The notes: generated by a model not told the origin, from the sequence alone. A stretch of 63,561 nucleotides of DNA, filler included, from Octopus bimaculoides (GCF_001194135.2; 9 parts of 7 records of this genome joined end to end with filler, not necessarily neighbours in it); one strand, 5' to 3'. Positions 696 through 57,318 are shown, counted from the first letter of the whole stretch. Numbers and translations: made by a program.

Positions 696-746
696 TCATA
701 CTTTATTTACAATGGACGGATAGGTGTCCGTCTTATTTGTTGTTAT

Positions 747-788
747 CACAATGTTTCGGCTGGTGTACTCTCCAGCCGTCTTCAGGTG
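747..788 (-). ncRNA. minimal type-I hammerhead ribozyme motif
   Basis: Minus strand: CAC CTGAAGA C GGCTGG agagtaca CCAGCC GAAAC ATT GTG; 6-bp stem II, 3-bp stem I, stem III has one mismatch. Confidence 0.65.
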
Positions 789-835
789 TTCTGGTGAAAT
801 TTCGAACCCAACCCTTTCTGTTAATAGTATTTTTC

Positions 836-907
836 AAGTCCCTGCCTGGAATTGAACTTAGAATCCGAGGGTTAGTAACCCGCGTGCTTATCCACTACGC
901 TATATGC
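836..907 (-). mobile_element. tRNA-like Pol III head of the inverted element
   Basis: Minus strand GCATATAGCGTAGTGGATAAGCACGCGGGTTACTAACCCTCGGATTCTAAGTTCAATTCCAGGC: A box TAGCGTAGTGG, B box GTTCAATTCC, anticodon-arm-like GGGTTACTAACCC. Confidence 0.7.
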
Positions 908-1055
908 CTGTGGATAAGCGCGGGCTACTAACCCTCGGATTCTACGTTCAATCCCAGTCAGGGAGTTGAAAAATAACATCGGTAACATACTTTAGGAATG
1001 AGAACAGTGTACCTCATTAGTCAAATGAAGGGTTGGGTTCGAAATTCCACCAGAA

Positions 1056-1097
1056 CACCTGATGACGGCTGGAGAGTACATCAGCCGAAATGTTGTG
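1056..1097 (+). ncRNA. minimal type-I hammerhead ribozyme motif
   Basis: CAC CTGATGA C GGCTGG agagtaca TCAGCC GAAA TGTT GTG. Confidence 0.7.
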
Positions 1098-1382
1098 ATA
1101 ACAACAAACAAGGTGAGGACATCTCTCCGTCCATTGTAAATAATGTGCATAATTCCTCATCTCAACAATATAGAATAGCATTATTTCATACACACAAAAT
1201 ATATGTCAGTAGAATATGATTTGAGGGAGAGTTGGTTGTCATTTCTAACCGGTCTAGCTTCCTTGCAGAAGTCTTCGTCGTTTCTCATAAATATTCTTTT
1301 ATTCTTTTACTCGCTTCAGTCATTTGACTGCGGCCATTATCATGCATATCGTAATGGTTTAAATTTTTTAACTCAATACCAG

Positions 1383-1562
1383 CAATTTCAGAGGGAGTAA
1401 TAGATTACATCGACCCAGTGCTCAACTGGTACGTATTTCATCGACCCCAAGAGGATGAAGGCAATGTCGACCTCAGTGGAATCTGAACTCAGAACATAAA
1501 GACTGACGAAATGCCGCTAAGCATTTTTCCCGATAAGCTTACGATTCTGCTGGTTTGCCACC
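1383..1562 (-). mobile_element. SINE family B
   Basis: Reverse-complement match to the 478-695 and 29536-29740 copies. Confidence 0.8.
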
Positions 1563-1725
1563 ATAAACATGCATATCACAATACGATGTGATTTGAGGGG
1601 TGATGTGGCTACTGTTTCTAACTGGTCGAGAGATCATAGAATGGCTGCTCCGTTGTCTTGTATGTACTCATTTGTTATGCATTTTTGTGGTGTGTATGTA
1701 TACATATTTGTGTATTTGTGTGCGC

Positions 1726-1728
<3 letters not shown>

Positions 1729-1812
<84 letters not shown>
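1729..1812. repeat. (GA)n microsatellite
   Basis: Read directly. Confidence 0.98.
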
Positions 1813-1814
<2 letters not shown>

Positions 1815-2616
1815 TGTCTGGTTTGTGTGCGTTTTCTGTGTAGGGGTACATGATGTATGTTTATGCAAATATCAGGAGAAACGGTAACAAATCCCTCCTC
1901 CTCCGCCACGACCACCATGAAGTATAGGGTTTGTTGACTTTTGGCAAATAGAATGTGCTTGTGAATGAGTGAAAATTGCTTGTGTACATGTAATGTCATC
2001 TGTATATGTGTTTATTTGTTGTGTGTTACGTATGTGTGAGTCCCTTGTTTGTTTTTCGTGTGTTCTGTGTTTCATTGCATTTGTCATTTGTTTTCTGTGT
2101 GTGTCTATGCGCGCCCCCGTGTTATATCCGTCCCAGATGAGCAAGTTTTGCTACGTCCATCATGACAATGCAAAGTGATTTTGTAATGACCACGGTGAAA
2201 TGGAGTCTGCGATAGAATGGGCGAAAATAACGGTCGCCATCTGCACATTCGATGCCCAAAAAGAAAATGTGAAAGACACGAATTTGGAATATACATATAT
2301 ACATTTTTGGGGAACAATTAATAATGTCTCGATAAACAAAGATGTTGTTTATCTATTTCGTACATAGATGTATACACATAAAACAACATCAACAAAAAGA
2401 AATAGAAATCATCTTCAATCTATTATTTTTTCGTATGTGCGGAAAAATTGATGTAACCACAATATTTTCTCGATCTGAAGAGGTACCCTTCTACATGTCA
2501 ATTTGTTTGTAAAATGTACAATAGTGCTATGCAATTTATAGCATACATATTGGAGCAGATATTATCCTATGGATATCAACTATATATGTATGTATGTTAT
2601 ATCATACACACATACA

Positions 2617-2665
<49 letters not shown>

Positions 2666-54546: not shown

Positions 54547-55315
54547 TTAGGCTGTTCCGAAAATAATAGCCCTTTCAGAAGCATAATTTTATTCTGAAAA
54601 AATTTACAATAGAAGCGTTTTGATTAGTCAAAGTATGAGCCGTGATCATCTATGCATCTCTGCTATCGATCATCGAGATTATTTATGCCTCGTTAATAAA
54701 ATCTTATTGGCTGTGATGCTAAGAAATCTTTGAAAGCTGATTCCACCTCTAGTTTGGATCTGAAAGTTTTATCACTTAAAAACGTGTTTAAATGCTTTAA
54801 AAATGGTCGTCAGTGGGTGAAAGATCAGGAGAAAATGGAGGATGTAGTAAAGTCTTGTATCCCCATCTGTGAGTTTTTGCAGCGTCATTCTTGCAACATG
54901 TGGCTTTGCATTATCGTGGAGCAGAATTGGCTCACGCCGATTCATCAATGTAGGGCTCATTTTTTTGCAAGTGAGCATGTATTTCAGCTTGTTGATTGCA
55001 GTAAACATCTGCTGTAATGCTCTGATTGGGTTCCAGAAAGCTGTAATGGACAACACCAACCGCAGACCACTAGACAGTCACCATAATCTTTTGCTGATGC
55101 AGCTATGGCTTTGGGAAATGTTTCGGGGACTCATCACGATCAAGCCATTGACCTGATCGTTTACGGTTATCATAAAGGGTCCACTATTCCTCACAAGTGA
55201 CTATTCGGTCAAGAAAAGGATCATTGGTGTTTCGCAGAAAGAGCATCGAGCGCACTTCAAAACGCCGAACATTTTGACTTTCATTGAGCTTTATGCGGTA
55301 CCTATTTATCCAAGT
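54547..55315 (-). pseudogene. mariner (DD34D) transposase catalytic domain and 3' TIR
   Basis: FLDRIVTCEE, ILLHDNAKPH, PFSPDLSPTD; TIR TA|TTAGGCTGTTCCGAAAATAAT. Confidence 0.88.
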
Positions 55316-55364
55316 TTTTTTTTTCCAATGCCCGCTGGTCATTTTGTTAATATTCAGTAGTTTA

Positions 55365-55580
55365 TTAAAGTGGCCAGCAGGTAGCGTCGTCATTGCGCCG
55401 AGCAAACTGGTAAGCGGCATTTCGTCTATTTTTACGCTTTCAGTTCAAATTCCACCGAAGTCGACTTTGCTATTCATCCTTTTGGGGTTGATAAAATAAG
55501 TACCAGTTGATCACTAGAACCAGCGTAATTGACTGACCCCCTTCTCGAAATTGTTGGTCTTGTGGGAACATTTGGAATTA
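55365..55580 (+). mobile_element. SINE family B
   Basis: AGCGGCATTTCGTC..CAGTTCAAATTCCACCGAAGTCGACTTTGC. Confidence 0.82.
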
Positions 55581-55685
55581 ATATTCGGTAGTTTATTGTT
55601 CTCAGTATTACAAGCTGTGTAATAAAGTACTTCACACAATACTTTAATTAAATTTAATTATCACAAAACTTGCAGTTACTACTCC

Positions 55686-55880
55686 TTAACTCTTAAGCAT
55701 TCGGATTACTCTTGTCAAAAGTAATACATTTTCGCATCGTTTTAAATTGATTGTAACTTCAGGGTTTTGATGATGTTACTGCATATTGTGGGGTAGGTGC
55801 GAGATGCCAGAACTGATTGGTTTGAACATAAAACAGAATATTTTGGCATGATATGGTCAGTTTAAATTCTAAATGGTTAA
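55686..55880 (+). mobile_element. piggyBac-like MITE with TTAA ends
   Basis: TTAACTCTTAAGCATT ... AATTCTAAATGGTTAA imperfect TIRs. Confidence 0.7.
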
Positions 55881-56338
55881 TTGTTAATGATAGTCTTCTT
55901 GTGTTGTAGAAAAAACTTTCATCGTAACCCTACAGCTTTTTCAATCTGACAAGGAATGGTCTTATTTTATTTTTGTTAACTGGGTATTTCAATGTTATAA
56001 GCATTTATACAATCACATTAGTATTTGCCTAAATGGTTAAGCTATTCTTTCATCTAGGTTAATTTGATAATATTTCCTATCTTTACTTGATTGGTGCTAA
56101 CCAGTGTAAATTTTTAACCACTGGAAATAAATCGTTACTTTACAATAATATTCTTTCAAATTCAATTACATTTCCTTTCTTAAAGTCTGCTCTTTTTCTT
56201 CACAGAAAGTTGGTAATTTTATCATGCAGATAGTTATTATTTGAATTTCCCGAGGTTTCACTTGGGAGAATGCACCGGCTGCCACTCACAGAAGACAAAA
56301 TCGCGCATCTCTCATCCTCTCTCTACCACCTCTCTCTC

Positions 56339-56422
<84 letters not shown>

Positions 56423-56530
56423 TATATACATATATATGTGTATGTATATATATATGTGTGTGTGTATGTATATATATGTGTGTGTGTATGTATATATATA
56501 TATGTGTGTGTGTGTGTATGTATATATATA

Positions 56531-56563
<33 letters not shown>

Positions 56564-56642
56564 GTGTGCGTATGTACATATACATATATATGTGTATGTA
56601 TATATATAGATATATGTGTATGTATATATGTGTGTATGTGTG

Positions 56643-56674
<32 letters not shown>

Positions 56675-57182
56675 TATATATATTGCACACGCCATCTGCC
56701 AACATTACAGCTGTTGTGTATTTGAACTTATTCTTACGTGTGCATTCTGCAGATAAACAAGTACATCGTTTTCACGCATAATGCAAATAAGTCGTGGACT
56801 GGTGATATGATAAATCTCTGATCCTGTTTGGATACGTGATGTTAATAAGCCCCCAAAATGGCGAAACATCGATGTCCATCACTCTTGGATGGGGTTTGAG
56901 GTGAGTTATCTCGTCTGTCTATGATATTCCGGTGTATTAACAACCGGAGCTTTGTGAGAGTATACTCTACCACGTCATTCGCCATACCCGAGTATTCTGT
57001 ACCACGCCATACCCAAATATACAAAGCATATACCTTAAAGTAAATGTGATTGATAATATATATATATATATATATGTTTCATATAATAGGATAAAGTCTT
57101 TGTAAGAATTTATCAAGTAGTTAGCGTGAAAAAACCTCATAAGGGAAAAATCCATCATTTATTCCCTATAAATATATTTATC

Positions 57183-57318
57183 AATTTATATAAGGGCATT
57201 ACTATACATGAATGCCTCACCCTCGCATTCGGTAAAAATGTGTTTATTATGGTAGTTTGACTTTTAGAGTCCCTCTTAGTGTGAGGCATTCATGTATAGC
57301 AATGCCCTTATATAAATT
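57183..57318. repeat. 38-bp inverted repeat with 60-bp spacer
   Basis: 57183-57220 vs 57281-57318, one mismatch. Confidence 0.85.

Follow-up and report, generated by a model that had tools for sequence, protein, structure and literature searches.

Insertions of Penelope-like elements (PLEs) are known to form a characteristic unit: a 5'-truncated copy, an inverted copy that adjoins its 5' end and is 5'-truncated as well, a tail of 30-40 nt at one end, a hammerhead in the pseudo-long terminal repeat (pseudo-LTR), and a preference for (TA)n targets (Craig 2021, PMC8557442). The same architecture is found in a window of 63,561 nt, filler included, of Octopus bimaculoides DNA (GCF_001194135.2; nine parts of seven records joined end to end), in which eight palindromic elements were analysed: E1 (704), E2 (5288), E3 (13920), E4 (37175), E5 (42540), E6 (50536), E7 (57183) and E8 (43728-43989). 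Compared with the published unit, most units here are shorter than 300 nt, E1 (702-1180) is tRNA-headed and has no open reading frame (ORF), and E3 has an extension of 61 nt. The palindromes are probably scars of insertion by PLE enzymes, and E1 is probably a tRNA-derived short interspersed element (SINE) mobilised by the same enzymes.

In Schistosoma, Cervera and De la Pena (2014, PMC4209133) also described pairs of hammerheads on opposite strands, separated by 100-700 bp, which they attributed to truncated PLEs. Since both the insertion unit and such pairs are already published, the architecture shared by the octopus elements is not new: it is ordinary PLE debris, mainly relevant to repeat annotation, and the E1 family is of greater importance. 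Regarding the ribozymes, those of the window resemble the metazoan PLE minimal hammerheads of PMC4209133 in the extra base before stem II, the palindromic stem III, the diversity within one genome and the covarying 3-8 pair. However, those are U3-A8, whereas E6 has G3-C8 and E2 an A6U change, and the consulted text of that study holds no octopus data. In the consulted part of PMC11167929, G3-C8 occurs only in an engineered form that gives partial rescue, and A6C is a weakly active natural hammerhead variant (PMC3088659). A natural G3-C8 core would be a small addition to hammerhead variation.

Elements combining a hammerhead with RNA polymerase III (Pol III) features are represented by the schistosome SMalpha and Sjalpha (PMC6765202, PMC8490949), which, like E1, are SINE-like, with Pol III-type features and a type I hammerhead. 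SMalpha lies in tandem repeats, its mobilising enzyme being unnamed in the text consulted, whereas E1 is dispersed, bears PLE insertion marks and has its minimal hammerhead close to the 3' end. Animal non-LTR retrozymes (PMC7229834, bioRxiv 10.64898/2026.07.22.740005) are likewise non-coding, 150-400 nt long and provided with a type I hammerhead, and PLE enzymes have been proposed for them; however, their defining features are head-to-tail tandems and circular RNA, and neither was seen here, nor do the consulted portions mention a tRNA head. For PAc, the Poseidon element of Anolis, Frangieh (2024, PMC11167929) described how the tail arises: the PLE protein nicks AT-rich DNA, uses both strands for priming and begins to copy at two internal RNA sites, the spacing of these two reverse-transcription start sites setting the length of the tail, which is termed unique to PLEs. 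As in E1, no RNA-seq ends were seen at the hammerhead cut of this active element. Unlike E1, PAc is autonomous, and the head-to-head fusion of two cDNAs, which we infer for the octopus elements, is absent from the portion consulted.

Octopus SINEs OR1, OR2 and OK are tRNA-derived, OR2 being listed as a CORE-SINE (Ohshima and Okada 1994, via PMC4758252 and PMC10886601), and a literature search found no octopus SINE connected with a hammerhead or a PLE. The same search, which left subscription papers, supplements, Repbase and Dfam outside its scope, returned no octopus hammerhead SINE and no SINE with PLE insertion marks.

The E1 element and its family

E1 is composed of two inverted copies between identical 11-bp target-site duplications at 691-701 and 1181-1191 (both +), a length reached in 1.3% of 1500 random pseudo-elements, which served as the null for all target duplications, one-sided extensions being permitted in the search. 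The left copy (702-909, -), delimited by the arm alignment, has the whole tRNA-like head, an internally deleted middle, a hammerhead and a tail-less 3' end. Its head spans 835-909 (-), the A box starting at 902 and the B box at 857, 34 nt apart, and the copy begins at 909, exactly at tRNA position 1. Its minimal hammerhead (747-788, -) matches the relaxed descriptor and has a decayed stem III loop. The right copy (910-1146, +) begins about 13 nt into the head, and its minimal hammerhead (1056-1097, +) matches the strict descriptor, with a fold z of -2.98 and a predicted cut at 1094/1095. This copy is lengthened by a one-sided tail of 34 nt (1147-1180, +); the family ends at 1146 or 1175, and the duplication begins at 1181. 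The 3' end is formed by a hammerhead and a PLE-type tail with the duplication immediately after, and not by the A-rich or simple-repeat tail shared with long interspersed elements (LINEs).

The tRNA-like character of the head is supported by a scan for Pol III A and B boxes, which gave 11 matches in the window against 0.26 per shuffle. The other ten are ordinary SINEs, and the A-to-B spacing of the E1 head matches theirs; among all eight elements, convincing boxes were present in E1 only. In addition, the head is colinear from end to end with those of the SINEs at 12737 and 61315, which none of 300 shuffles equalled in either case, while the comparison with the SINE head at 10692 was equalled by 3 of 300 shuffles and that with an unrelated type at 29533 by 56 of 300. 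The head may resemble tRNA-Arg. A run of four T was not found on the sense strand of either copy, nor was any ORF remnant found in E1. The ordinary tRNA-type SINEs of the window belong to at least three multi-copy families (3812-4178, 10688-11078 and 12733-13121; 45451, 59521 and 61322; 490, 29537 and 40163). ARAGORN with lowered thresholds made 3-139 scattered calls, which were discarded as evidence. A second B-box-like stretch lies at 1034-1050, immediately before the E1 hammerhead, and the middle segment, judged by eye, may be another tRNA remnant. Beside E1, a separate high-copy repeat fragment (1207-1270) has sharp ends of its own at 1207 and 1247.

For a better view of the family, two DNA and two RNA runs were compared with 897-1285 at 80% likeness, about 6% of each RNA run being sampled, and for E1 only. 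Contigs of the family numbered 3807 and 3194 in the two DNA runs. Summed word depth, which is not a copy number, reached 1.87 million at the 3' end and 8,000-8,800 over the head, the unique flank having about 52. Copies have loose ends at 1146 and 1175, 29 nt apart, in all four runs. Seven of the 15 joints shown (25 in total) switch strand; no two do so at the same point, and each is represented by a single contig in a run. The family majority letters at 950 and 953 move the B box nearer to the consensus. The family could correspond to OR1, OR2, OK or a Repbase entry.

It could be argued that a SINE fragment and a PLE end were fused just once, here at E1, and later duplicated in inverted form, as no contig listed spans the whole unit. 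This is very improbable, because the head and middle are multi-copy (8,000-29,000 in summed depth against about 52), because head and hammerhead are also joined elsewhere in the family (position 957 to 1042 in a single contig of each DNA run, and 957 to 1030 in three RNA reads), and because a second, partial copy at 63333-63443 (+) has a B box (63348) followed by the middle segment. Reads upstream of the hammerhead mostly show, by eye, this same middle segment.

In the RNA runs, 4248 of 12.9 million and 3688 of 12.0 million records matched E1, with mate orientations about equal, a pattern that fits read-through transcription of many copies. The preliminary description had suggested looking for circular or self-cleaved RNAs, and within these 4248 and 3688 reads of E1 neither RNA ends nor back-joints were found at the predicted cut, nor any circles. 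This bears on the possibility that the elements are animal non-LTR retrozymes replicating as self-cleaved circular RNA. The non-coding nature of the units, their length of 150-300 nt and their type I hammerheads, as well as the intact core and palindromic stem III of E5, would suit such a mode, and two DNA joints, one going back 118 nt and one leading from 1154 to 917, are compatible with tandem copies elsewhere. However, there is no head-to-tail tandem within the window, and the copies neither start nor end at the cut site, so that, together with the RNA result, retrozymes are an improbable explanation. In the same region (897-1285), A>G and T>C changes accounted for 43 of 112 variable places in one RNA run and 41 of 114 in the other, compared with 20 of 72 and 19 of 68 for the DNA runs; in individuals that were not matched, this hints only weakly that hairpins of the family undergo A-to-I editing.

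Probable PLE origin and a proposed mode of insertion

Microsatellites abound in the window, an animal scaffold in which 8,789 N are spread over many gaps, and inverted repeats are present at 700-1146, 5288-5380, 13920-14241, 37175-38163, 42540-42946, 50536-50798 and 57183-57318. Palindromes had been proposed at all seven of these places, the last only as possible, and they are thus confirmed; the extent of the second, given as 5288-5540, does not hold, as the repeat ends at 5380. Hammerhead motifs were compared with 100 dinucleotide shuffles of the window under the strict type I descriptor. It matched four times, always within the listed elements, and the shuffles gave 0.00-0.04 matches per class (n = 100); a fourth class, of U3/U4 variants, had no match in the window and 0.11 in the shuffles. 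With the relaxed descriptor, six of 14 matches fell in the eight elements tested, which make up 5.6% of called bases, against a mean of 3.9 and a maximum of 9 in shuffles. When stems I and II were required to total at least 8 bp, six of seven matches were inside, against a mean of 0.42 and a maximum of 3. In addition, seven of 34 CTGANGA cores lie inside elements (p 0.0024). The enrichment in inverted repeats that the preliminary description expected is therefore borne out, its figures being somewhat flattering because the core variants were chosen post hoc and the element list was picked for hammerheads.

The motifs do run outward from the centre, as had been described, but their quality varies. 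A minimal type I hammerhead close to the 3' end is recognized by the descriptors in E1, E3, E5 and E6: the one in E5 is intact, that of E6 has the G3-C8 pair, and in E1 and E3 the stem III loops have decayed. Meanwhile, stem II is damaged in E4, E2 has A6U and no fold signal, and E7 lacks a core. The palindromes at 34627-34960 and 43728-43989 (E8) carry no hammerhead, so that palindrome and ribozyme are not always coupled. Starts of copies show no evident pile-up at the hammerhead edge, three of eight falling 28-30 nt before the core and the others 70-541 nt before it. Rfam called no hammerhead at 650-1200 or 42670-42780, and none appears among the 150 of its 252 window matches that were listed; its microRNA matches, which score below gathering and derive from palindromes and microsatellites, were rejected. 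A lone minimal core with the extra base and a palindromic stem III, with almost no stem I, lies outside the palindromes at 21128-21171 (-).

Regarding insertion marks, long flanking duplications were found in two of the eight elements, E1 and E3, each with a one-sided extension. In E3, a 13-bp duplication (13846-13858 and 14240-14252) is matched in 0.6% of the 1500 pseudo-elements, and its left extension of 61 nt (13859-13919) is defined by the duplication alone. The search in E4 gave an 8-bp microsatellite match only, and in the other five elements nothing. A fixed short duplication directly abutting both inverted ends, as in miniature inverted-repeat transposable elements (MITEs), was not seen; the flank signatures of E1 and E3 are not those of a MITE. 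The preliminary description had set against its own reading the terminal inverted repeats and target-site duplications of DNA transposons, and this signature is absent from these two elements, the ones with readable flanks. That the palindromes are DNA-transposon MITEs with hammerhead motifs by chance has scarcely any credibility. Long terminal inverted repeats, a Tc1-type transposase remnant 30 nt from E5 and the two hammerhead-free palindromes of the window would agree with it; however, hammerheads are enriched in the palindromes, the 11- and 13-bp duplications are set 34-61 nt away from one arm, the inversion points vary, and the arms of E4 consist of PLE coding sequence. For E1, E3 and E4, the MITE reading is largely refuted.

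E4 (37175-38163) is made of a long copy (37540-38163, +) and an inverted shorter one (37539-37175, -). The long copy encodes the C-terminal half of a GIY-YIG domain (37560-37973, +) with three stops, read as X; this remnant occurs in E4 only, in agreement with the earlier claim that PLE coding sequence is confined to the 37-38 kb element. HMMER returned 526 relatives of the peptide at E 0.001 or better, the best being 65% identical and labelled at its source as a protein of Octopus bimaculoides. The peptide also matches the C-terminus of an 813-aa protein with a reverse transcriptase motif (E 6e-16), whose atlas neighbours include GIY-YIG and RVT_1 clusters. Three word-index protein searches gave no match. 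Pfam found none for P0051, P0002 and P0031 and one sub-threshold match for P0097, and PDB none for P0158. Hammerhead cores lie at 38081 in the long copy and 37256 in the inverted one; stem II is damaged and neither passes a descriptor, though the left one folds in a hammerhead shape. Judging from its sequence, E4 is a 5'-truncated autonomous PLE of which only the endonuclease half is left.

As the non-coding 3' part of E4 measures about 190 nt, an insertion truncated inside it would look like a short non-coding element, so that non-autonomy of E2, E3, E5, E6 and E7 cannot be read from the window. Plain 5' truncation of autonomous PLEs explains these five equally well, nothing found here runs counter to it, and their parents may have been autonomous or not. 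Extended to E1, this account would make every element a 5'-truncated end of an autonomous PLE and the tRNA segment of E1 a SINE head captured in a pseudo-LTR, without any separate SINE. The truncated autonomous copy in E4, the far deeper coverage of the 3' end of E1 than of its head, and the known tRNA-bearing LTRs are in its favour, the LTRs of Helenus and Cassandra having captured small-RNA genes (PMC10886601). However, the copies of E1 start at tRNA position 1 and 13 nt later, which random truncation would rarely produce, depth at 897-909 is at single-locus level (36-66), and E1 carries no ORF remnant. A captured head in E1 is thus unlikely. The elements had been presented as largely non-coding, retrozyme-like PLE derivatives; the PLE origin is supported, while support for "non-coding derivative" is confined to 702-1180, which resembles a SINE more than a retrozyme: it has a tRNA-derived head, is dispersed and carries its two divergent copies on opposite strands.

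The PLE origin of the palindromes is supported by the GIY-YIG remnant, the one-sided tail, the long duplications and the minimal hammerheads with an extra base before stem II. In the proposed mechanism, a PLE protein would bind RNA at the hammerhead-and-tail region and nick both DNA strands. Two cDNAs, one per nicked end, would then extend along the RNA in the direction of its 5' end and halt at unequal distances. Their head-to-head joining would give a pair with both 3' ends facing outward, a single tail and a staggered duplication; E1 shows every mark expected of this model. In E4, a coding PLE RNA would have served as template, and in E1 a short transcript made by Pol III, about 280 nt long, with the PLE-type hammerhead and tail as a landing site for the enzyme, because both copies reach, or almost reach, the first base of the tRNA-like head. 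It seems fairly likely that the E1 RNA is a Pol III transcript, which would make E1 a SINE dependent on PLE. Moreover, since the hammerheads lie on opposite strands, one locus cannot make the dimer needed by minimal hammerheads, so the inverted pair would be an end product or by-product.

Several results weigh against this explanation. Six of the eight elements have no convincing target duplication, three of them lying at assembly gaps, and Pfam found nothing in the E4 peptide or P0158. Neither Rfam nor default ARAGORN calls the E1 head a tRNA, and its fold is no better than that of shuffles (z 0.65); as a control, an ordinary SINE head of the window likewise reached only E 7.2 in Rfam. In the family, the head lies about 200-fold (DNA) and 30-fold (RNA) under the depth of the 3' end, a gap that may come from truncation, subfamily divergence or both, and the contigs listed include none with the whole unit. 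In the two RNA runs, no read was 99% alike to the E1 locus and no pile-up of starts or ends was seen, nor any sign of a discrete Pol III transcript, cleavage or circles, although standard RNA-seq may miss short RNAs. An autonomous partner of E1 was not found, in a search without the whole genome.

If true, the explanation would add a partnership between SINEs and PLEs, SINEs being otherwise taken to depend on LINEs. The octopus could then, more tentatively, possess a very abundant SINE class partnered by a PLE and not a LINE and inserted as inverted pairs, a tRNA head driving Pol III synthesis of its short RNA; other short hammerhead families, those with the natural G3-C8 and A6U cores among them, are perhaps non-autonomous PLE parasites as well. 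The 280-nt RNA of E1 would be a natural minimal substrate for learning what a PLE enzyme needs of hammerhead and tail, and a large E1 family would let the two-cDNA model of inverted insertion be tested by counting.

The remaining palindromes and neighbouring repeats

The copies of E2, E3, E5, E6 and E7 are 40-300 nt long, and E2, E5 and E6 touch assembly gaps or are no more than 10 nt away from them. E2 (5288-5533, +) has a 190-nt copy between (TA)n runs and an inverted copy cut by a gap, its centre being (TA)n. Its motif at 5411-5443 (+) matches the strict descriptor, with the conserved A6 broken and a fold no better than shuffles (z 0.24). A similarity between the ends of E1 and E2, seen by eye, failed the shuffle test and was rejected. 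E3 (13859-14241) has two divergent arms of 157 nt, each with one hammerhead motif (14012-14052, -; 14109-14149, +). The idea that in most elements one arm is truncated at the junction fits these elements only in part: the arms of E3 begin at one point, those of E1 within 13 nt of each other, and the left arm of E2 enters the gap at 5140-5287, so that its truncation cannot be judged.

E5 (42540-42946) joins a long copy (42838-42540, -) to an inverted 108-nt copy of its 3' end (42839-42946, +), and E6 (50536-50798) a long copy (50641-50798, +) to an inverted one broken within stem II. Each has one whole hammerhead, in the longer copy only: that of E5 (42704-42748, -) is intact and that of E6 (50666-50712, +) has the G3-C8 core, both matching the strict descriptor, with fold z of -2.24 and -1.95, respectively. 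E7 (57183-57318) has arms of 41 nt and no intact core. E8 (43728-43989), which was outside the list of the preliminary description, is an older palindrome that shares its 3' end with E3 and has lost its hammerhead. The statement that the elements have nothing in common beyond the core holds among the six listed there, and fails for E3 once E8 is included.

Besides the elements, a palindrome of 334 nt at 34627-34960, kin of 3544-3714 and MITE-looking, serves as a hammerhead-free negative control. Three related units with divergent arms (28305-28397 and 28708-28804, 70%) lie at 27455-28815, with a CTGANGA core at 28390 (-) whose stems are badly formed; the cluster is possibly another decayed PLE-type family with partial tandems. 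The Tc1-type transposase remnant (42976-43290, -; PF01498, below cut-off) appears to be the insertion target of E5. The metagenome, viral and prokaryote collections gave no match to the E1 family pattern, as expected for animal DNA. Remnants of Helitron helicase-like, LINE reverse transcriptase and FLYWCH sequences are located at 50952-51539, 26462-26773 and 18404-18736, respectively.

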